Positions 6,300 through 54,878 are shown, counted from the stretch's first letter. The stretch: DNA of 64,000 nucleotides from an uncultured Clostridia bacterium (GCA_947347075.1 CANADC010000019.1:18929-82928); one strand, 5' to 3'. Program-made: numbers and translations. The notes: generated by a model from the sequence alone, not told the origin.

Positions 6300-6666
6300 C
6301 TGGTGAGGGAAAAGTTTGGGTGTGAGAGTGAGGGGATTGGGGGGAGGATGTTGGAGTGAGGAAGGGGAGGAGGCTAGAGTGGGGAAGGGGAGGACGCTAG
6401 AGCGGGGAAGGGGAGGACGCTAGAGTGGGAAGCCATTTCTTCCCGCTGTTCCGCTCTACGGAAAGTAAGAATGTCTAATGCTTCTGGGGATAGGTGCATC
6501 CAGCCGGACGGACCGGGGTGCAATTCGCCCGTGCTGCGGGCTAAACACACCCCTTTTTTTGCCATTCGAGAATGGCAAAAAATCCTAGTGGATCGACAGA
6601 AGCATAAGACATTCTAACTTTCCTCCGAAGTCACAGCGGGAAGAAATGGCTTTCCCACTCTGGCTG
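6300..6666 (+). repeat. Structured repeat family A, copy A1, with a tandemly triplicated G-rich leader
   Basis: Conserved core CCGGACGGACCGGGGTGCAATTCGCCCGTGCAGCGGGCTAAACACACCCC-T6-GCCATTCGAGAATGGC-A6-TCCTAGTGGATCGACAG. It is flanked by two nested complementary stems. It is preceded by three tandem copies of GGGGAAGGGGAGGACGCTAGAG at 6330-6420. The element proper is about 6411-6666. Confidence 0.8.
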
Positions 6667-6725: not shown

Positions 6726-6810
6726 ATCTATTAAGGAAGTCCTATTTGACGCAGTATAGGATTATGAGGAGGCAGCGGAGCGGATTCCGAATTTCCTTTG
6801 ATATTTTAAA
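6726..6810 (+). repeat. Repeat family B, partial copy (B2-type end)
   Basis: TTAATCTATTAAGGAAGTCC ... GCGGATTCCGAATTTCCTTTGAT matches the ends of family B. Confidence 0.55.
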
Positions 6811-6954: not shown

Positions 6955-7115
6955 ACCTCATCAAGGAAGTCCCCCGCTTCTAAGCCGCCAAGGCGAAAGC
7001 GGTGGGTTGGGACTTCTTTGTTTCAGTGGGAGTGCAGACTCCCACTGAAAAGCTGCGATAGAAGCTATGAGGTTATGAGCAAGTAGCAAAGCGGATTGCG
7101 AATATCCGATTTGAC
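6955..7115 (+). repeat. Repeat family B, full-length copy
   Basis: AACCTCATCAAGGAAGTCCC / GGGACTTCTTTG foldback. Internal hairpins TTTCAGTGGGAGTGCAGACTCCCACTGAAA and AGCTGCGATAGAAGCT. Conserved 3' end AAGCGGATTGCGAATATCCGATTTGACT. Confidence 0.8.
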
Positions 7116-9683: not shown

Positions 9684-9878
9684 TCACGCCGAGTAATGTA
9701 TTTTTAGTCCGGCTGTGCTTTCCGCTTCCAGCACTTTCATCATTTTGTCGGTGGTGGCGGTGGTGTCCTGTTTGAAATAGCCCGAAACCACAAGGACGGT
9801 GTTCCCTCTGTGTACTTCTGTCACGCAATCCGGGCGGCGGGCGGTAGTGGCGGTGCTTCTGTTGGGGGTGTCGGTCAT
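9684..9878 (-). CDS. Hypothetical small protein
   Basis: Its start overlaps the stop of the upstream minus-strand ORF by 4 nt (ATGA). It lies in GC-rich foreign DNA and has no recognisable motif. Confidence 0.3.
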   Translation of the reverse strand: MTDTPNRSTATTARRPDCVTEVHRGNTVLVVSGYFKQDTTATTDKMMKVLEAESTAGLKIHYSA

Positions 9879-10465
9879 AGGCTCTCCTTTCTGTTCAGCA
9901 GCGTTTTAAGGCGTTCCATTTTCGCCTGTGCTTTGGCTTTTCTGAAATTCTCCCCGGTAATGCAGACGGGGCAGCACATTTCTGTAAGGCGGTCATAAAT
10001 GCGGGCGTGGGCGGTGTCCTCCGGGTTCTGCAATTCTTTCAGCGTGAGGTTCGTTGTCACGATTAACGGCTTGCCGCTGCGGTATCGGCTGTCAACCACG
10101 TTATAGATTTGCTCTAAGCCGTATTTCGTGCCACGCTCCATGCTGAAATCATCAAGGATAAGCAAGGGGAAGCTGCAAAGGCGGGAGATATATTCGCTGC
10201 GGTCTTTGAAGCTGGCGGCAGCTCCCGCAATACAAGTTTGACCGCATATCGTAATGGGGTATTCTTTATAGGGTGCTTCAAAATATTCGTCTGTTGTGCC
10301 TAAAGGGTAAAACTTTTCTTCTGTGAGGTATTCAAGGGATATTTCCTTTTGCCGCCGTCTGCTCCTGTCACGCCATGCGTTAATAGCCGCAAAGCGTATA
10401 ACGGTCTTGCAATAGCTATTGAACGTATACATGATGTGTTTTCTGTATGCTTCTGTGCAGGGCAT
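9875..10465 (-). pseudogene. DnaC/IstB-like ATPase, degenerate (C-terminal half only)
   Basis: C-terminal half matches the DnaC/IstB family (LLILDDFSMERGT...IVTTNLTLKEL...RIYDRLTEM...ITGENFR). The N-terminal half has no Walker A GxxGxGKT motif and is unrelated. Probably a fused or decayed gene in the GC-rich mobile-element remnant. Confidence 0.5.
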
Positions 10466-11912: not shown

Positions 11913-12174
11913 CATAAAGGAATGAGAGAGGGATTCCATCATGCTTGTCTTTTGGTCTTTGGTTCGGAATAGTGTGGTGCTGGAGGTCTATCTCTTGTTT
12001 TCGGTTTCTTGTTTCTTTACCGTACATGAGCATTTAGTCGTGGGATGAATTGCTCACATATGTTAATTAAATTTCAAGTAATAATGCTAAAAATAATTGA
12101 TATAACAACATACATCTATTATCGTTTGTATAACGAGGTGATTCTATATGGAAGTGACTCATGGACGTGGATAG

Positions 12175-12270
12175 GTATATTCCATCCAATATCATATTGT
12201 TTGGTGTGTAAAATACAAGCATAAAATGATTACGGCTGATATAGAGAAATGTCTGATAGGGATAGTCAAA
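12175..12270 (+). pseudogene. tnpA: IS200/IS605-family transposase (TnpA) N-terminal fragment
   Basis: Open frame translates VYSIQYHIVWCVKYKHKMITADIEKCLIGIVKSDIRNPL*. The YHIVWC.KY(R/K).K stretch is the characteristic N-terminal strand of IS200 TnpA. Only about 35 codons remain. It is fused at its 3' end to a family-B terminus. Confidence 0.55.
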
Positions 12271-12295
12271 TCGGATATTCGCAATCCGCTTTGAC
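12266..12295 (-). repeat. Repeat family B, terminal 30-bp fragment (inverted), fused to the tnpA fragment
   Basis: AGTCAAATCGGATATTCGCAATCCGCTTTG is the reverse complement of the conserved family B 3' end. Confidence 0.5.
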
Positions 12296-12406
12296 CAATG
12301 CAAAAATTCTAAAATTATTTTTAATAAAAAAAGAAAGAAGGAAATTTAACAAAAAAAAATAAGAATATACTGGAGCAAAGAGAAAAAAGTAGATTGTGAG
12401 ACAATA

Positions 12407-12660
12407 CAGCCAGAGTACTTGAAAGGGAACTGTGACTTCGGAGGAAAGTTAGAAGCTCTTAGACTTCTGTCAATCCACTAGGATTTTTTGCCATTCTCGA
12501 ATGGCAAAAAAAGGGGTGTGTTTAGCCCGCTGTACGGGCGAATTGCACCCCGATCCGTCCGGTTGGATATGCCTAGATTCAGAAGTCTTAGAGCTTCTGC
12601 TTTTCGGAGAGCGGAACAGTTCCCTTTCAAGTACTCTGGCGTTATTTCCGGGGAATTTTT
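12407..12660 (-). repeat. Structured repeat family A, copy A2 (reverse orientation)
   Basis: Same conserved core as A1 in reverse complement. Its outer stem (CAGAGTACTTGAAAGGGAACTG / CAGTTCCCTTTCAAGTACTCTG) and inner stem (GAAGCTCTTAGACTTCTG / CAGAAGTCTTAGAGCTTC) differ from other copies but remain complementary. Confidence 0.8.
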
Positions 12661-19935: not shown

Positions 19936-20123
19936 TTGGGGGGGACGCTGACATCATTGGGTGATTTTCTGTTGGGGGGACGCTGACACCACTGGATGAT
20001 TCTCTGCTGGGGCCGTTTGCACTAAGGCTTCCTCGCAGCGGACACATAAGGCACGAAAAGACCGTGCCTAAGTGCCGGCGGGAAGCAATACCCCTGCAGA
20101 GATTCATCCAGCGGTGTCAGCTG
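19936..20123 (+). repeat. Structured repeat family C, copy C1, with duplicated G-rich leader
   Basis: Core GGGGCCGTTTGCACTAAGGCTTCCTCGCAGCGGACACATAAGGCACGAAAAGACCGTGCCTAAGTGCCGGCGGGAAGCAATACCCCTGCA. It is flanked by the complementary arms CTGACACCACTGGATGATTCTCTGC / GCAGAGATTCATCCAGCGGTGTCAG. The leader TTGGGGGGACGCTGACA occurs twice in tandem. Confidence 0.75.
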
Positions 20124-20190: not shown

Positions 20191-20356
20191 TTTAACCTCA
20201 TCAAGGAAGTCCTCCGCTTTTAAGCCGTCAAGGCGAAAGCGGTGGGTGGGGATTTCCTTGTTTCAGTGAGAGTGCAGACTCCCACTGAAAAGCTGCGATA
20301 GCAGCTATGAGGTTAGGAGCAAGTAGCGAAGCGGATTGCGAATATCCAATTTGACT
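20191..20356 (+). repeat. Repeat family B, full-length copy
   Basis: Same architecture as 6955-7115. Confidence 0.8.
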
Positions 20357-20475
20357 CTATCAAGGAAGTCCCCCGCTTCTAAGCCGCCAAGGCGAAAGTG
20401 GTGAGTGGGGATTTCCTTGTTTCAGTGAGAGTGCAGACTCCCACTGAAAAACTGCGATAGCAGCATAGGATTACA
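20357..20475 (+). repeat. Repeat family B, tandem second copy (5' part)
   Basis: CTATCAAGGAAGTCCCCCGCTTCTAAGCCGCCAAGGCGAAAGTGG...CAGACTCCCACTGAAAAACTGCGATAGCAGCATAGG, directly abutting the previous copy. Confidence 0.7.
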
Positions 20476-20484
20476 AATTTCTTT

Positions 20485-20690
20485 TAACTCCAGAAGGAAT
20501 ATTCCAACAGTCGGAGTAGAGAATTTTTACGGGGCGTTGTTTTTAGAAGGAATGAACCAGCAGACCGAATAAAATATTTTTGTGAAGTATCATTTCCAGG
20601 GGGAATAAGCCAACAGGCGGAATAAAAACGTTTATGAGGTATTATTTTTAGGGGGAACGAAACAGCGGGTAGCATAGAGAGAATCTTTGC
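20485..20690. repeat. Degenerate tandem array of about 4 units of about 55 bp
   Basis: Units are AGAAGGAAT..CCAACAG.CGGA.TA.A...TTTT....G...T.ATTTTT. They are imperfect, of unequal length and have no spacers. Confidence 0.45.
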
Positions 20691-20797
20691 AGGGGTATTG
20701 CTTCCCGCCGGCACTTAGGCACGGTCTTTTCGTGCCTTATGTGTCCGCTGCGAGGAAGCCTTAGTGCAAACGGCCCCAGCAAAGATTCTCTCTATGC
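20674..20797 (-). repeat. Structured repeat family C, copy C2 (inverted relative to C1)
   Basis: Reverse complement of the family C core, flanked by the arms AGAGAGAATCTTTGC / GCAAAGATTCTCTCT. Confidence 0.75.
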
Positions 20798-23553: not shown

Positions 23554-23916
23554 GGGGTTGTACTGGTTTCGACGGGGATTATGAAGTTGGAGAAGCCACC
23601 TGCGGGTCGGAACCGCATTAGTAAACCGAAAATTAAATATAAACGCAAACGAAGATTACGCGTTCGCTGCTTAATAGCAGCTGTCGCTCTTAGGTAGCTT
23701 ACTGCTTAAGAATCCGGCATCAAGGAGGTAAGGAACTTTGTATCCAAAGCTTTGAGGGTATAAAAGAAAAATGAAGCTACTAAAGCCGGAAACCTGTCCA
23801 TGGGTGTCCGATAGAGGGAACCGTATAGAAAAAGGCTATGCATAAAACAGGGACTGTGGTGGGAGATGCTTTGATGGAGGAGTCTTCGGACAGGGGTTCG
23901 ATTCCCCTCAGCTCCA
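23554..23916 (+). ncRNA. ssrA: tmRNA (SsrA)
   Basis: 5' GGGGTTGTACTGGTTTCGACGGGG matches the tmRNA consensus GGGG..G..CUGG.UUCGACGGG. Internal tag reading frame ends ...ANEDYAFAA followed by TAA. 3' end GGACAGGGGTTCGATTCCCCTCAGCTCCA forms a T-arm plus a 7-bp acceptor stem with the G3:U pair. CCA is not encoded. Confidence 0.85.
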
Positions 23917-23942
23917 TCGGTTAAACGTAACCGTGTTATGTT

Positions 23943-24960: not shown

Positions 24961-25128
24961 TTTTTAACCTATTAAGGAAGTCCCCTGCTTCTAAGCCGTG
25001 AAGGCGAAAGCGGTGGGTTGGGAGACTTCCTTGTGTCAGCTGGGGGAAAGTCCCATCTGACAAGCAGCGATAGCAGCATAGGATTATGAGGAAGGAGCAG
25101 ATTCCGAATTTCCTTATTTCCTTTGACT
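24961..25128 (+). repeat. Repeat family B, variant B2
   Basis: TTTTAACCTATTAAGGAAGTCCCC...GGGAGACTTCCTTG foldback with inner hairpins. 3' end GGAGCAGATTCCGAATTTCCTTATTTCCTTTGACT. Confidence 0.7.
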
Positions 25129-28063: not shown

Positions 28064-28324
28064 GGGGGAGGGGACGCTAGAGTTTGGAAGCAATTCTTTT
28101 TTGCTGTTCCGCTCTCCGAAAAGTAAGAACGGCTAATGCCTCTGAGTTTAGGTGCATCTGACCGGACGGATCGGCACGCAATTCGCCTCTGCAGGAGGCT
28201 AAACACGTGCCTTTTTTTGCCATTTGGAAATGGCAAAAAATCCTAGTGGATCGACAGAGGCATAAGACGTTCTAACTTTTCTCCGAAGTCACAGCAAAAA
28301 AGAATCGCTTCCCAACTCTGGCTG
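28064..28324 (+). repeat. Structured repeat family A, copy A3
   Basis: Begins 8 nt after the histidine-kinase stop codon. Outer stem AGAGTTTGGAAGCAATTCTTTTTTGCTG / CAGCAAAAAAGAATCGCTTCCCAACTCT and inner stem AGAACGGCTAATGCCTCTG / CAGAGGCATAAGACGTTCT. Confidence 0.8.
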
Positions 28325-29257: not shown

Positions 29258-29711
29258 AGAAATAAAAATAAAGATAAGTAGATTTGTTTGGGGTCTGGTA
29301 ACGGTTTAACAACATTTATAATATTATGTACGAAATAATTACATCTAAAGGTATGTGAAAAACCTTGTTGATTTTCAGATATAGAGACTGAATATCAGCA
29401 AGGTTTTCTTTTTTCTCCATTTTATGAAATTCTTCTGTAAGTATATTACTGACTGCCTGTGAAGGGATTTTCGCCCAATGCCTTTTGCAAGGTTGTGTTT
29501 TGGTGCTTTCGTTTTGGTTTTATACTGTGCCATACGAATATTAAAGGTTTTTCCTATAGTCTAAGCTGAAATAATGCAACTTAATGGAAAAAGTATTGTA
29601 ACTTCAATATATATTTGTTATGATAAAAATAAAAAGGTGGTATTAGATTATGTCCTTCTCATATAAACCGCTATGGAAATTACTAATTGATTATGATATG
29701 TCGAAAAAGGA

Positions 29712-29831
29712 TTTAACCTCATTAAGGGAGTCCCCCGCTTCTAAGCCGTCAAGGCGAAAGCGGTGGGTTGGGACTTCCTTGATGAGGTTATGAGCAAGTA
29801 GCGAAGCGGATTGCGAATATCCGATTTGACT
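29712..29831 (+). repeat. Repeat family B, short form (no inner hairpins)
   Basis: TTTAACCTCATTAAGGGAGTCCCCCGCTTCTAAGCCGTCAAGGCGAAAGCGGTGGGTTGGGACTTCCTTGATGAGGTTATGAGCAAGTAGCGAAGCGGATTGCGAATATCCGATTTGACT. Confidence 0.8.
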
Positions 29832-29882
29832 TGTAAAGTTGACGATGTTATCCAACATTGCCAAGATAGGAGGAATATTTGA

Positions 29883-30881
29883 GTGGATAAAATAGATTTT
29901 GAAAATATTCATTTATATTGTGGGGATGCGATTAGATTATATAGTAAATGGAAAACTCCAGTTGTTATAATCTGTGATGGACCATATGGCGTAAATGGAT
30001 TTCCAGGAGATTTAGTTTCATATAAAGGACTTGCAGAGTGGTATGAGCCACATATAAAAAAATGGAGTTCTTTTGCTACACCGCTTACAACGTTATGGTT
30101 TTGGTGTACTGAGGTTGGTTGGGCAACGGTTCACCCTATGTTAGAAAAATATGGCTGGGATTATGTTTCTTGCTGCGTATGGGATAAAGGAATGGGACAT
30201 GCAGCGGGAAATACAAATACTAAAACGATTAGACATTTGCCTGTAGTTACAGAAGTGTGTGTTCAATATGTAAAAAAGCCTATCTTTATGGTAGGAGAGG
30301 TTCAAATGACAATGAAAGAATGGCTGCGCTATGAATGGGAACGTACAGGGCTTCCATTTTCAAAAACAAATGAAGCTTGTGGAGTGAAAGATGCCGCAAC
30401 AAGAAAATATTTTACAAAATGTCATTTATGGTATATGCCGCCTGCAGAAGCTTTTGAAAAGATTGCAGTATATGCAAATACATTTGGAGCAGATAATGGA
30501 AAACCATACTTTTCTTTAAATGGTAAAACCGTTATAACAAAAAAAGAGTGGGCACAGATGCGTTCAAAATTTTATTGTCCTATTGGTGTAACAAATGTAT
30601 GGCAGGTTCCACAGTTGAGAGGGCACGAACGCTTGAAAATTAACCAAAAGGCAATACATCTAAATCAGAAACCATTGGAATTGATTAAACGTACCATAGA
30701 AATGGTTTCTGATGTTGGTGATGTGGTTTGGGATCCATTTGCTGGATTATGTACAACAGCGGTTGCTTCAACTGAGTTGGAACGAATTTGTTTTTGTGCA
30801 GAAATCAATCATGATGTATATAATATAGCAGTAGAACGAGTAAAAAACAGTTTACAGGATGGTTTTCAATGCGTTCTCTAA
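29883..30881 (+). CDS. DNA methyltransferase, N4/N6-MTase family, beta class
   Basis: GTG start with RBS AGGAGG. Motif IV-like ICDGPYGV (a DPPY variant) lies near the N-terminus and motif I VWDPFAGLCTTAVAS (DPFxGSGTT) near the C-terminus. That order is typical of beta-class amino-MTases. AT-rich relative to flanking genes. Confidence 0.7.
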   Translation: MDKIDFENIHLYCGDAIRLYSKWKTPVVIICDGPYGVNGFPGDLVSYKGLAEWYEPHIKKWSSFATPLTTLWFWCTEVGWATVHPMLEKYGWDYVSCCVWDKGMGHAAGNTNTKTIRHLPVVTEVCVQYVKKPIFMVGEVQMTMKEWLRYEWERTGLPFSKTNEACGVKDAATRKYFTKCHLWYMPPAEAFEKIAVYANTFGADNGKPYFSLNGKTVITKKEWAQMRSKFYCPIGVTNVWQVPQLRGHERLKINQKAIHLNQKPLELIKRTIEMVSDVGDVVWDPFAGLCTTAVASTELERICFCAEINHDVYNIAVERVKNSLQDGFQCVL

Positions 30882-31733
30882 CTTTTTTTCATCTTTTGAG
30901 GATAAAATTTCACTCCATTGTTTGATTGTCATACTATGAAAAACAGTATTTAAAACATGGGTTTTAAATTGTTCAATTTCCTCATGTTCTATACGGTCGA
31001 TTTTGGCATAATTAGTATCAAGTCTATAAATAAATTGTCCGTATAGAGTTCTTAGAAGTCGTTGATATTCTGGGGCAGGGCTGTATCTTTGGGCATCTTT
31101 TCCCCATGTTTCAACAATGGAAAATGCAGCTTTAGCATCGCATTTATCTGATTGTAATTTATAACCATTCGTGTTGGTTTGCTGCAAATTAGTGGTACGT
31201 TCAGAGGTGTCTTCTGGTTCAAAAACAAGATAGTCAGGTGGTTTATGGTAGTGGGAATCTCTTGCTTCTGCAACACTCTTACCGCTAACTATAAGGACAT
31301 CAATAATTTGAGGCTTTCCCCAAATAACATTCTCTGGTAGCCATGCAATTAGTGCCATATCTATATTATCTTGTGCAAAAATCGTTACACTGTCCTTGAA
31401 GCGTGCTGTAATTTCTGTTGCAAAAGGAAACCATGCTTTAATTTCGATACCAGGGTTAGGTTGGATTATGCTACTCTTGAAAAGTGCATCAGGGAAACCA
31501 GGATCTTGCCTTATCCATTCACCTACGCCATTCCAGTCGTGTTTATTTAATAAGTCAATTGTAGAAAATTCAATCATATTTCCCAACAATGGAGAAAGTT
31601 TTGAGATAACTTTTGCGAGTTGTTTTGCGTATGCTAATGTTGCTGGACGTTTGATATCTAGTACATCAATCAAATGACTGTCTAAAGAAGATAATTCTTT
31701 TTTGGCGGCATCTAGAATATCTCTACTATTCAT
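30852..31733 (-). CDS. Hypothetical protein; candidate type II restriction endonuclease partner of the MTase
   Basis: 293 aa with RBS AAGGAG 8 nt before ATG. Convergent with the MTase and overlapping it by 30 nt at the 3' end. No motif confidently recognised (possible D...E.K near IDMALIAWLPENVIWGK). Confidence 0.4.
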   Translation of the reverse strand: MNSRDILDAAKKELSSLDSHLIDVLDIKRPATLAYAKQLAKVISKLSPLLGNMIEFSTIDLLNKHDWNGVGEWIRQDPGFPDALFKSSIIQPNPGIEIKAWFPFATEITARFKDSVTIFAQDNIDMALIAWLPENVIWGKPQIIDVLIVSGKSVAEARDSHYHKPPDYLVFEPEDTSERTTNLQQTNTNGYKLQSDKCDAKAAFSIVETWGKDAQRYSPAPEYQRLLRTLYGQFIYRLDTNYAKIDRIEHEEIEQFKTHVLNTVFHSMTIKQWSEILSSKDEKKLENALKTIL

Positions 31734-31962
31734 TAAGGTTACTCCTTTTTACAATTAATTCATTTTAGTATATCATGAAAACAGAGTTGAGAAAAGTAGT
31801 GACTTTTGAAAATATTGTAATATAAAATAATAATATATATTTAATCGTAAGAATGGATTGATAAATAGAAAATAATATGTTGCAAAGAACTTTTATTTTT
31901 TTAAAAATAGGAAATGGGAAATGACAAATGATATATTAGTAATTTTCAATATTTTAACCTCA

Positions 31963-32066
31963 TCAAGGAAGTCCCCCGCTTCTAAGCCGCCAAGGCGAAA
32001 GCGGTGGACTTCCTTGATGAGGTTATGAGCAAGTAGCAAAGCGGATTGCGAATATCCGATTTGACT
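31963..32066 (+). repeat. Repeat family B, short form
   Basis: TTTAACCTCATCAAGGAAGTCCCCCGCTTCTAAGCCGCCAAGGCGAAAGCGGTGGACTTCCTTGATGAGGTT...GCGGATTGCGAATATCCGATTTGACT. Direct orientation with the copy at 29712. Confidence 0.8.
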
Positions 32067-32224
32067 TGTTCTATATTTTGAGAAGACAAAATACAAATCT
32101 CTTGTTTTTTCTTAATGAAGTATTTAGAGTGGAAAAAATCTCCTTATTAAATTTTGTATATTTCGGATAGATTAAGAAGATACTATCTTGAAGAAAAATA
32201 AAAAATAAGGAGAAGGTGGGAGGA

Positions 32225-33747: not shown

Positions 33748-33892
33748 GACGCTCGCCCTAAGGGATCTTTCTTTGCTGGGGCCGTTTGCACTAAGGCTTC
33801 CTCGCAGCGGACACATAAGGCACGAAAAGACCGTGCCTAAGTGCCGGCGGGAAGCAATACCCCTGCAAAGAAAGATCCCTTAGGGCGAGCTG
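33748..33892 (+). repeat. Structured repeat family C, copy C3
   Basis: Family C core flanked by perfectly complementary 26-bp arms GCTCGCCCTAAGGGATCTTTCTTTGC / GCAAAGAAAGATCCCTTAGGGCGAGC. Confidence 0.8.
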
Positions 33893-33905: not shown

Positions 33906-34013
33906 TTTAACCTCATCAAGGAAGTGCAGACTTTAGACTTTCATTGAAAAGTTGCGATAGTGGCTATGAGGTTATGAGCGAGTAGTGAAGCGGATTGCGA
34001 ATTTCCTTTGATT
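33906..34013 (+). repeat. Repeat family B, divergent short variant
   Basis: TTTTAACCTCATCAAGGAAGTGCAGACTTTAGACTTTCATTGAAAAGTTGCGATAGTGGCTATGAGGTTATGAGCGAGTAGTGAAGCGGATTGCGAATTTCCTTTGATT. Confidence 0.65.
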
Positions 34014-34524: not shown

Positions 34525-34648
34525 CTGCTGGTGAATCCCTGCAGGGGTATTGCTTCCCGCCGGCACTTAGGCACGGTACTTTCGTGCCTTATGTGTCCGC
34601 TGCGAGGAAGCCTTAGTGCAAACGGCCCCAGCAGGGATTCACCAGCAG
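34525..34648 (-). repeat. Structured repeat family C, copy C4 (inverted relative to C3)
   Basis: Reverse-complement family C core flanked by the arms CTGCTGGTGAATCCCTGC / GCAGGGATTCACCAGCAG. Confidence 0.8.
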
Positions 34649-44480: not shown

Positions 44481-44735
44481 AGGGGACGCTGGAGTTTGGA
44501 AGCCCTTTCTCTATGCTGTTCCGCTCTCCGAAAAGTAAGAAAGTCTAATGCCTCTGAATGAAAATATATCCAACCGGACGGACCGGGGTGCAATTCGCCC
44601 GTGCAGCGGGCTAAACACACCCCTTTTTTGCCATCAGAAGATGGCAAAAATCCTAGGAGATCGACAGAGGCATAAGACTTTCTAACTTTTCTCCGAAGTC
44701 ACTGCATAGAGAAAGGGCTTCCAAACTCCAGCTGG
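44481..44735 (+). repeat. Structured repeat family A, copy A4
   Basis: Conserved core. Inner stem AGAAAGTCTAATGCCTCTG / CAGAGGCATAAGACTTTCT. Outer stem GGAGTTTGGAAGCCCTTTCTCTATGC / GCATAGAGAAAGGGCTTCCAAACTCC. It follows the carboxypeptidase gene in the same orientation. Confidence 0.8.
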
Positions 44736-48553: not shown

Positions 48554-48734
48554 ATAAAAATAGAAAGAACATAACAAATTTTATTCACCATTAGTTTGGG
48601 TAGTTATCAAAAGATAAGATAACTGCCTTTTATTTTATTAAGTCAAAGGAAATTCAGAATCCGCTCCACTACTTCCTTGATAGGTTAAAAAAACAAAAAA
48701 AGAGAAAAAAGAATACCTATATTGTGGAAAAAGA

Positions 48735-48982
48735 CAGCCAGAGTATGGCATTGCAGTACTGTGACTTCGGAGGAAAGTTAGAAGCTTTTAGACTTCTGTC
48801 GATTCATTAGGATTTTTTGCCATTCTTGAATGGCAAAAAAAGGGGTGTGTTTAGCCCGCAGCACGGGCGAATTGCACCCCGGTCCGTCCGGTTGGATGCA
48901 TCTAAATTCAGAAGTCTTAGAGCTTCTTACTTTCTGTAGAGCGAAACAGTACTGCAATGCCATACTCTGGCGTCCTCCCCCC
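48735..48982 (-). repeat. Structured repeat family A, copy A5 (reverse orientation)
   Basis: Reverse complement of the conserved core. The G-rich leader is visible as CGTCCTCCCCCC at the right end. Confidence 0.8.
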
Positions 48983-54624: not shown

Positions 54625-54878
54625 GGGAGGACGCTAGAGTTTGGAACCTATTTCTTGCAGCTGTTCCGCTCTTCGGAAAGAAGAAGCTCTAAGACTTCTG
54701 AGTCTGGGTGTATCCAACCGGACGGAACGGGGTGCAATTCGCCCGTGCAGCGGGCTAAACACACCCCTTTTTTGCCATTCGAGAATGGCAAAAATCCTAG
54801 TGGATCGACAGAAGTCTAAGAGCTTCTAACTTTCCTCCGAAGTCACAGCTGCAAGAAATAGGTTCCAAACTCTGGCTG
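54625..54878 (+). repeat. Structured repeat family A, copy A6
   Basis: Conserved core. Inner stem AGAAGCTCTAAGACTTCTG / CAGAAGTCTAAGAGCTTCT. It sits between the FtsA-like gene and the MVP-like gene. Confidence 0.8.

Follow-up and report, generated by a model that had tools for sequence, protein, structure and literature searches.

Family B is a short, non-coding repeat present as 11 copies or fragments in a 64,000-nucleotide (nt) stretch of DNA from an uncultured Clostridia bacterium (GCA_947347075.1 CANADC010000019.1:18929-82928), referred to here as the window. It is a mobile, hairpin-rich, target-specific element and has recently been active. One truncated copy adjoins a fragment of tnpA, the transposase gene of IS200/IS605 insertion sequences (IS), and an initial annotation of the window regarded this fusion as a clue to the origin of the family. 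On our analysis, the tnpA fragment is the dead remnant of an IS605-type element that was probably hit by family B at TTTAA^T and subsequently lost sequence. As the junction is best explained by insertion of family B into tnpA at its usual target, it is uninformative about the origin of the family. The locus is therefore ordinary genome archaeology, a decayed IS struck by another mobile element. It is family B itself that is noteworthy: it is very abundant and recently active, inserts at a clean target, lacks an identifiable transposase, and carries what appears to be the core of the Clostridiales-1 RNA motif.

The tnpA remnant and its junction with family B

The remnant spans 232 nt on the + strand (12033-12264) and consists of a partial left end (LE) of about 115 nt followed by tnpA codons 1-39. 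Its closest near-intact relative is an element designated L001. The features at the locus are:

12033..12147, + strand: LE remnant, beginning within the loop of the LE hairpin (left arm gone) and extending to the ribosome-binding site; part of the 232-nt match to L001 5886-6117
12148..12264, + strand: tnpA pseudogene fragment, codons 1-39, MEVTHGRG*VYSIQYHIVWCVKYKHKMITADIEKCLIGI, with TAG as codon 9; Pfam match and tblastn match to L001
12265..12293, - strand: 5'-truncated family B copy, last 29 nt only (CAAAGCGGATTGCGAATATCCGATTTGAC on the minus strand), profile positions 132-160

The ribosome-binding site is retained (GAGGTGA, 12135-12141), and from the start codon at 12148 the + strand reads ATG GAA GTG ACT CAT GGA CGT GGA TAG, then the codons for VYSIQYHIVWCVKYKHKMITADIEKCLIGI; the premature TAG lies at 12172-12174. 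Frame 1, translated from 12100, gives ...MEVTHGRG*VYSIQYHIVWCVKYKHKMITADIEKCLIGIVKSDIRNPL*, with the frame continuing past the tnpA fragment into KSDIRNPL*. The peptide matches Y1_Tnp (PF01797) with E=3.2e-6 and 27.7 bits against a Pfam cutoff of 23, the alignment covering 32 residues (10-41 of the peptide, 2-33 of the 121 profile positions). It shares 83% identity with residues 1-41 of the L001 TnpA by tblastn, and nucleotide identity to L001 5886-6117 is 91.8% across the 232 nt. The recognition of an IS200/IS605 tnpA N-terminus in the initial annotation was hence sound, although it overlooked the retained ribosome-binding site and ATG, the TAG codon and the LE sequence in front of them. The fragment resembles IS605-type elements (tnpA plus tnpB) in its N-terminal motif, YHIVWCVKY.HK, and in the LE hairpin upstream of tnpA. 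Unlike an intact element, it is reduced to 232 nt, is interrupted by a nonsense codon, and keeps only the right half of the hairpin (TTTAGTCGTGGG, homologous to L001). The HUH motif, catalytic tyrosine, tnpB and right end (RE) are all missing, and neither the left arm of the LE nor the RE was found in a search across the rest of the window. It is a dead pseudogene fragment.

Homology to L001 stops after GGGATA (12259-12264, codon 39). L001 goes on with TTAAAT (GGGATATTAAAT), whereas the window reads GGGATA GTCAAATCGG... (GGGATA+GTCAAAT..). Read on the minus strand, the intact L001 tnpA contains ATTTAA^TATCCC at this position, which is a family B target. The same strand of the window reads ...CCGATTTGAC|TATCCC, the 3' end of family B followed by the expected downstream flank. 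The right edge of the remnant is thus, to the base, the 3' terminus of an element on the opposite strand, and this is the only copy in the window in minus orientation. A 30-mer, AGTCAAATCGGATATTCGCAATCCGCTTTG, occurs six times in the window at up to three mismatches (0 expected); five of these, seen from the opposite strand, terminate family B copies, and the sixth, at 12264-12293, adjoins tnpA. The earlier statement that tnpA runs directly into a family B terminus accordingly holds exactly. Strains L009 and L265 carry the same structure, which makes the event old compared with the divergence of the strains. Contigs examined for strains with another allele at this locus were all identical or broken within the repeat.

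In the history we propose, a family B copy would have transposed into tnpA in antisense orientation. Its first ~130 nt, together with the remainder of tnpA, tnpB and the right end, would then have been lost through a later deletion, or would never have been joined if the insertion was abortive and 5'-truncated. The latter is plausible because solo tails show that 5'-truncated forms are common. The left arm of the LE hairpin would have been removed in a separate event. Two points weigh against this account. The copy keeps only its 3' (RE-side) junction, and insertion is read from that one junction because the TTTAA side has been deleted. In addition, the pre-insertion sequence of tnpA is taken from a 92%-identical relative in another organism.

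Searching 5.8 billion proteins with the remnant peptide returned only short relatives of 27-82 amino acids (aa), including truncations at many different points. P0009 fuses a TnpA-family N-terminus to a TnpB zinc-ribbon C-terminus, P0018 fuses one to a TnpA C-terminus, and P0001, from a Lachnospiraceae metagenome-assembled genome (MAG), has the same tnpA/B junction as the window. Because all relatives in the protein database (P0003-P0023, L007, L008) are truncated or internally deleted forms of TnpA, this IS family evidently decays readily. The contigs encoding P0002 contain L001, a nearly intact IS605-type element with a tnpA bearing one stop and a 367-aa tnpB (OrfB_IS605 / Cas12f1-like_TNB). 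Its LE hairpin is ..CCTGCGAC-TTTA-GTCGTGGG.. (5' arm ending ..GCGAC) and its RE hairpin ..CTCACGAC-TTTA-GTCGTGAG-AGGTTCAA. No B-like sequence was found anywhere in it, the LE, RE, tnpB 3' end and putative omega-RNA region included, the longest words shared with the long and short forms of family B being 8-10 nt. The IS of the remnant is unrelated in sequence to family B. A compact derivative of about 400 nt, LE-tnpA(1-54)-tnpB C-terminus-RE, was seen among the truncated relatives and looks like a genuine descendant of this IS, resembling the palindrome-associated transposable elements (PATEs).

Two other explanations of the junction were considered. The initial annotation suggested that family B is a derivative of the remnant's own IS, resembling PATEs or miniature inverted-repeat transposable elements (MITEs), with the fusion left over from the autonomous copy that gave rise to the family. 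The physical joining of tnpA to a family B terminus, the IS200/IS605-like behavior of family B (5' target, no duplication) and the capacity of this IS family to produce internal-deletion derivatives all speak for that idea. We nevertheless consider it extremely unlikely: the LE and RE hairpins of L001 are dissimilar to family B, a result that the initial annotation had itself named as refuting its idea, the internal-deletion derivatives L007 and L008 retain L001-type ends rather than B ends, the B piece lies opposite to tnpA and is joined within the reading frame at TTTAA^T, and relatives of family B occur in many genomes without this IS. What survives of the claim is the target-specific, hairpin-rich behavior; the derivation from this IS and the fusion as a clue to it do not. 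It is also improbable that random deletion or illegitimate recombination joined a nearby family B copy to the IS with no insertion into tnpA. Such an accident would suit a region that is a patchwork of repeats in which both elements are truncated. There is moreover a second chimera, at L103 6770-6870 (minus strand), in which a truncated B-type palindrome, its start preceded by TTTAA, adjoins ~60 nt of antisense tnpA from the IS200 also present in L085; that junction lies away from any B terminus. The breakpoint in the window, however, falls exactly at the last nucleotide of family B and exactly at the TTTAA^T site of tnpA. By our estimate, the joint chance for a random breakpoint is roughly 1/160 x 1/500, or ~1 in 80,000.

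Further sequence to the left of the remnant is also repeated. The 77 nt at 11957-12033 recur at L088 1-77, a contig start from the same species, with 95% identity, and the two part ways exactly at the first base of the remnant. Most metagenome contigs with the upstream HxlR gene break at about 11964-11970. On these grounds, the left junction of the remnant also lies at the edge of a repeated segment. About 2 kb from the tnpA/B junction, a 196-aa open reading frame (ORF; 9875-10465, minus strand) may be another mobile-element remnant. Its counterpart in strain L009 has an IstB_IS21 (DnaC-like ATPase) Pfam match, and the strains differ by an indel at 9721-9923.

Structure, target and activity of family B

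The family B copies in the window were located with a profile built from 51 long copies. All 11 are intergenic, 10 of them share the leading (+) strand, and their density is about one copy per 6 kb. The count, the long and short forms and the intergenic placement agree with the initial annotation. In addition to the piece at the tnpA junction, they are:

6755..6796, + strand: weak tail-like fragment, profile E=2.5e-4
6956..7115, + strand: long form (H palindrome, M hairpins and T tail), with TTTAA and T flanks; fold computed
20196..20355, + strand: long form, the newest insertion at a locus with three allelic states among strains
20357..20465, + strand: older partial B-type copy directly after the preceding one, junction GAC-T-CTATCAAGG
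24970..25114, + strand: diverged copy, profile positions 4-153, E=6e-27
29717..29830, + strand: short form (H and T), near the left end of a strain-variable restriction-modification (R-M) island
31958..32065, + strand: short form (H and T), near the right end of the same island
33906..34011, + strand: variant with internal deletion, from the profile search
57527..57686, + strand: long form, from the profile search
60116..60145, + strand: weak tail-like fragment, profile E=6.9e-4

The element is read in the orientation TTTAA|CCTCATCAAGG...CCGATTTGAC|T. The long form measures 159-160 nt and the short form 113-114 nt (166 and 120 nt with the TTTAAC...T flanks). Module H, a palindrome that has inner hairpins and a stem of 19 bp, makes up the left end; module M is an optional pair of hairpins of 46 nt; and module T is a 48-nt tail, GAGGTTATGAGCAAGTAGCRAAGCGGATTGCGAATATCCGATTTGAC. 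The right end forms a 5-bp hairpin (CGGAT..ATCCG) or an alternative GGTTA/TATCC fold. The nested hairpins described earlier are borne out by DNA-fold z-scores of -8.9 for the long copy at 6956..7115 and -10.3 for the short copy at 31958..32065, relative to shuffled sequences. Compensatory double changes are present in 12 of the 54 consensus pairs when diverged relatives are compared. In the consensus fold, the flanking TAA and the first CC of the element pair with GGTTA just before the tail, a pairing which resembles the internal 'guide' sequences of IS200/IS605 elements.

Family B also occurs as palindrome-only copies set between TTTAA and TTAAA, as solo tails whose 5' flanks are arbitrary, and as internal-deletion forms. 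Head-to-tail tandems have the junctions GAC|CCTATCAAGG or GAC-T-CTATCAAGG.

The target is highly consistent. TTTAAC forms the six bases before CTCATC in 83 of 84 complete copies from five genomes, and bases further out are random. This upholds the earlier proposal of a conserved 5' target motif but not its form, TTAAC. The C belongs to the element, while the T after its 3' end belongs to the target, which is better given as TTTAA^T. Every one of the 12 non-tandem copies not chosen by the search pattern has that T after its terminal GAC; the base is C only where another copy directly follows. Empty sites were sought by joining the flanks of each copy and searching for uninterrupted versions. 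Three paralogous empty sites were found, all within another repeat family, with (C/T)TTAAT corresponding to TTTAA[B]T. Two read ..ggcaCTTAAT|gagcag.. against the filled ..ggcaTTTAA[CCTC...TTTGAC]Tgagcag.., and one reads ..gaaTTTAAT|gagc... These sites are compatible with a single placement only, in which the element enters between TTTAA and T and bases are neither duplicated nor lost. Since the two family B copies in that repeat family do not differ from each other and have flanks only ~82% alike, the insertions were independent and recent.

An orthologous empty allele is available at 20191-20465 in the window. Strain L263 lacks the element and reads gatagTTTAATccagg / gattttagatagTTTAATccaggag there; in four other strains TTTAA is followed by a single partial B-type copy; and the window has the full copy as well as the partial one. 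These are three allelic states among strains that are ~99% identical. In total, the four empty sites (three paralogous, one orthologous) show TTTAAT becoming TTTAA[B]T in one orientation without target duplication. Family B has therefore been recently active.

An exact-pattern scan covering one genome per species identified at least 120 loci, of which at least 60 are in one MAG. Among the matches listed, nearly all loci are from MGBC128194 (the species of the window, at 99% identity), MGBC136627 and a bin labelled Eubacteriaceae, with single loci in three other Clostridia. The host setting is mouse and human gut Lachnospiraceae MAGs. Many matches lie at contig ends; the repeat thus breaks assemblies. 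Long copies have a mean pairwise identity of 96.7% across genomes and species; orthologous genes of two B-bearing species are just 70-76% identical. Exact B1 ends gave 0 matches in viral contigs, and a shorter core retrieved diverged relatives in phage-like contigs with no transposases nearby. The plasmid collection yielded no match for family B, and the phage collection only unannotated faecal phage records.

We also considered whether the terminal TTGACT acts as an outward -35 element, and found that -10-like hexamers are not enriched after 136 copies. One good hybrid site resembling a promoter is present at 57682-57711 in the window, where TTGACT (the TTGAC of family B plus the target T) lies 18 nt before TG-n-TATACT, with 10 of 12 matches, upstream of the next gene.

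Mobility and relationships of family B

The hallmarks of IS200/IS605 'peel and paste' transposition and of PATEs are a 5' target, absence of target duplication, absence of terminal inverted repeats (TIRs) at the functional ends, hairpins, strand bias and mobilization in trans (PMC10055086, PMC3119063). Family B is likewise short, non-coding and hairpin-rich, has no TIRs at its functional ends, and inserts without duplication in one orientation 3' of a conserved pentanucleotide, TTTAA, with a strand bias. Because of its 5' target, absence of duplication and TIRs, subterminal hairpins and strand bias, IS200/IS605-like mobility is our best guess. It is tentatively proposed, at somewhat less than an even chance, that family B moves as single-stranded DNA through a trans-acting HUH/Y1 transposase, presumably being mobilized in trans as PATEs are. 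The predicted enzyme would cut on the 3' side of both the flanking TTTAA and the terminal TTGAC, recognizing the conserved tail hairpin and the large palindrome. The predicted circle junction is ...GATTTGAC|CCTCATCAAGG....

Several observations weigh against this mechanism. The two ends of family B have no common sequence or similar subterminal hairpins, unlike those of IS200/IS605 elements, and to our knowledge a T requirement 3' of the element is not a feature of that family. A search of ~860 kb of B-bearing DNA found no Y1 transposase with B-like ends. It is these three points that make the proposal only tentative. Solo tails with arbitrary 5' flanks and palindrome-only TTTAA...TTAAA copies are not simply explained by peel-and-paste. 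Outside the window, 107 copies lie on the positive-GC-skew strand and 37 on the other; this bias (10 of 11 in the window, where GC skew is +0.29) has the direction expected for IS200/IS605 top strands, is inseparable from gene co-orientation (99:43), and reaches only ~74%.

The search for a partner extended to several gene types. In 120 B-bearing loci, the Y1/TnpB homologues found were three ordinary IS200/IS605 copies (L085, L037, L049) with their own hairpins and ends unlike family B. PATEs share their LE and RE with a resident autonomous IS, whereas no match was found for family B on comparison with the ends of L001, L085, L037 and L049. Among genes bounded by inverted B tails, a REPtron-like arrangement, L034 has only a charged non-transposase ORF. 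Left-end copies without a nearby right end, sought as parts of an autonomous partner, were only palindrome arms and truncated forms, and no multi-copy ORFs were found in B-bearing loci. The precise TTTAA^T rule provides a handle for finding the enzyme.

Mobility by a route other than HUH/Y1 has a modest chance, although we think it unlikely. Family B could be an RNA gene spread by reverse transcription from a fixed 3' end, or its folded palindrome could be the substrate of a site-specific recombinase. Both would accommodate ends without similar hairpins. Reverse transcription would fit the many 5'-truncated copies that share an intact 3' end (the solo tails and the 29-nt piece at 12265..12293), the Clostridiales-1 core in the tail and the intermediate form L154 discussed below, and the covarying stems, with G.T mismatches outnumbering A.C mismatches 56 to 23 on one strand; yet the poly-A or target duplication expected of target-primed reverse transcription is lacking. 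For a recombinase, A^TTAAA(T), read on the strand complementary to the target, is similar to an integron-type G^TTRRRY core once the terminal G of the element is added, but integrons are essentially unknown in Firmicutes. No reverse transcriptase, recombinase or other conserved gene was found beside family B or Clostridiales-1 loci, and a precise, single-orientation insertion following a pentanucleotide is the classic mark of IS200/IS605 elements. A still more improbable possibility, which we rate as very unlikely, is an ordinary MITE moved by a DDE transposase, with the palindrome serving as TIRs and TTAA or TA being duplicated. The palindrome-only copies, TTTAA[CCTCATC...GATGAGG]TTAAA (L034 at 293, L023 at 1408), do look like TIRs of 17-19 bp with a TTAA duplication. 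The inserting composite nevertheless ends in ...TTGAC, and CCTCATC... and ...TTTGAC are not inverted repeats. The empty sites have no duplication (TTTAAT to TTTAA[B]T), and no IS with such TIRs was seen in the loci searched.

Other known systems share some of the features of family B. Repetitive extragenic palindromes (REPs), the bacterial interspersed mosaic elements (BIMEs) and pneumococcal BOX elements are abundant, intergenic, modular mosaics of short hairpins. REPs start with GTAG beside a hairpin, and the REP-associated tyrosine transposases (RAYTs, TnpA_REP) are Y1 relatives of IS200 TnpA. Family B is similarly composed of abundant intergenic modular hairpins, and its tail has GTAG beside a hairpin (..AAGTAGCGAAGCGGAT..), as in REPs. 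In contrast to REP/RAYT systems, inverted B tails were not seen to bound any RAYT-like gene in B-bearing loci; we know of no defined pentanucleotide target with clean empty sites for REPs or BOX elements. Rolling-circle elements (IS91/ISCR, Helitrons) lack TIRs, carry a subterminal hairpin at the 3' end, and insert without duplication beside or between specific bases, which for Helitrons are A and T; read-through varies their termination end. Family B has the same duplication-free insertion at specific bases, subterminal 3' hairpin and lack of TIRs. It differs in that it has no Rep/Y2 gene, its termini are not 5'-TC...CTRR-3', and its variable end is the 5' end. From PATEs it is distinguished by ends without a common hairpin, the T needed after the insertion point, its modularity, and the occurrence of palindrome-only copies and solo tails. 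Among target-specific, duplication-free hairpin elements, family B is a variant not described before.

The tail of family B also appears homologous, from sequence comparison, to the core of Clostridiales-1 (RF01699). This motif is listed, without an assigned function, as a probable RNA from Clostridiales and the human gut that is not cis-regulatory (Weinberg et al. 2010, PMC2864571). At the Rfam gathering threshold of 48 bits family B gave no match, and no copy in 18 loci reaches it; it is therefore not a Clostridiales-1 member by the criterion of Rfam. In E-value mode, the M hairpin and tail align to RF01699 with 16.7-17.6 bits (E about 0.13), and the alignment covers every highly conserved internal-loop position, UGAGCAaGuAGC...GCGGAuUGCGAAU. 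The conserved core, UGAGcAuGaAGc ... CGGAaUgCGAA, and its flanking stem are present in the tail. Family B thus has the internal loop of the motif (UGAGCAAGUAGC ... GCGGAUUGCGAA) with this stem, and its M hairpin aligns with the first hairpin of RF01699, but the closing P1 stem, the inner hairpin and the third hairpin are absent from it. The two are alike in being found in gut-community Clostridia and in being able to form tandems. Clostridiales-1 loci, on the other hand, have no TTTAA flank and are not known to be mobile.

A core pattern requiring a 10-30-nt insert absent from B1 identified at least 120 metagenome loci, and those sampled are genuine Clostridiales-1 RNAs (62-135 bits). An intermediate form is the B-type element L154, TTTAA|CCTCATCAAGTAAG..., which has the H and M modules and a tail that retains the inner hairpin; it scores 28.9 bits, below 48. 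In the diverged relatives from phage-like contigs the tail is almost unchanged, and the outer stem covaries (CCGAAT..ATTCGG versus CCTCAT..ATGAGG). No conserved protein neighbors of Clostridiales-1 loci were found, only syntenic housekeeping genes. It is a doubtful notion that family B and Clostridiales-1 might constitute one superfamily of structured, self-spreading non-coding elements, with the core loop (UGAGCAAGUAGC/GCGGAUUGCGAA) as a handle for mobility or processing. If this were true, the machinery could either act at the RNA level or consist of a trans-acting HUH enzyme that differs from known TnpA partners. Family B would then be the first member caught transposing, given its TTTAA^T insertion without duplication, its strain polymorphism and its presence in phage-like contigs. 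The link makes Clostridiales-1, which has had no known function since 2010, a testable question of mobile DNA or RNA.

Two further observations concern the motif. Genuine Clostridiales-1 RNAs form head-to-tail tandem pairs in rumen and gut metagenome contigs (L185 646-1009, L207 1362-1714, L150). The core shared with the B tail also occurs with a short inner hairpin (TGAGCAAGTAGCTGACTATTGTCAGCGGATTGCGAA) in L136, L138, L139, L141 and about 30 other human-gut metagenome loci. There it lies antisense in the 5' coding region, encoding MNAEKGHSQSADNSQLLAHKSSPQGGHAFKLKAPYKPTGDQP.., of a putative uvrB-like gene, named from reading of the translation only.

Other repeats and features of the window

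Two more repeats are prominent in the window. Family A is very abundant, ~190-245 nt in length, and takes the form of a long inverted repeat with a GC-rich center. At least eight copies lie in the window, one of which is found 110 nt beyond the tnpA/B junction on the right; the MAG loci contain dozens. A third repeat, ~105-120 nt long and rich in hairpins, has about 13 copies in the B-bearing loci examined; in the window it forms two inverted pairs ~570-660 nt apart, each bracketing a family B copy. The copies and the annotated RNAs are:

6446-6636, 12403-12646, 28104-28294, 44516-44702: family A
48718-48973, 54661-54848, 59303-59489, 63894-64000: family A
19992-20112, 20681-20788, 33763-33871, 34527-34645: third repeat
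23554-23919: transfer-messenger RNA (tmRNA)
59702-59812: thiamine pyrophosphate (TPP) riboswitch

The strain-variable island at 29277-32130 encodes an N6_N4 DNA methyltransferase (29883-30881) and a convergent 293-aa ORF (30852-31733, minus strand), which are probably an R-M pair. A short family B copy is situated near each end (29717..29830 and 31958..32065). Strains L256 and L260 have, in place of the entire 2.85 kb island, an unrelated sequence of 150 nt. This polymorphism was evaluated as a clean family B empty site and rejected, since it is a segment replacement. The window is very strongly asymmetric between its strands: GC skew is +0.29 over the 64 kb, long ORFs amount to about 15,000 aa on the + strand and 1,400 aa on the minus strand, and it contains two tRNAs.

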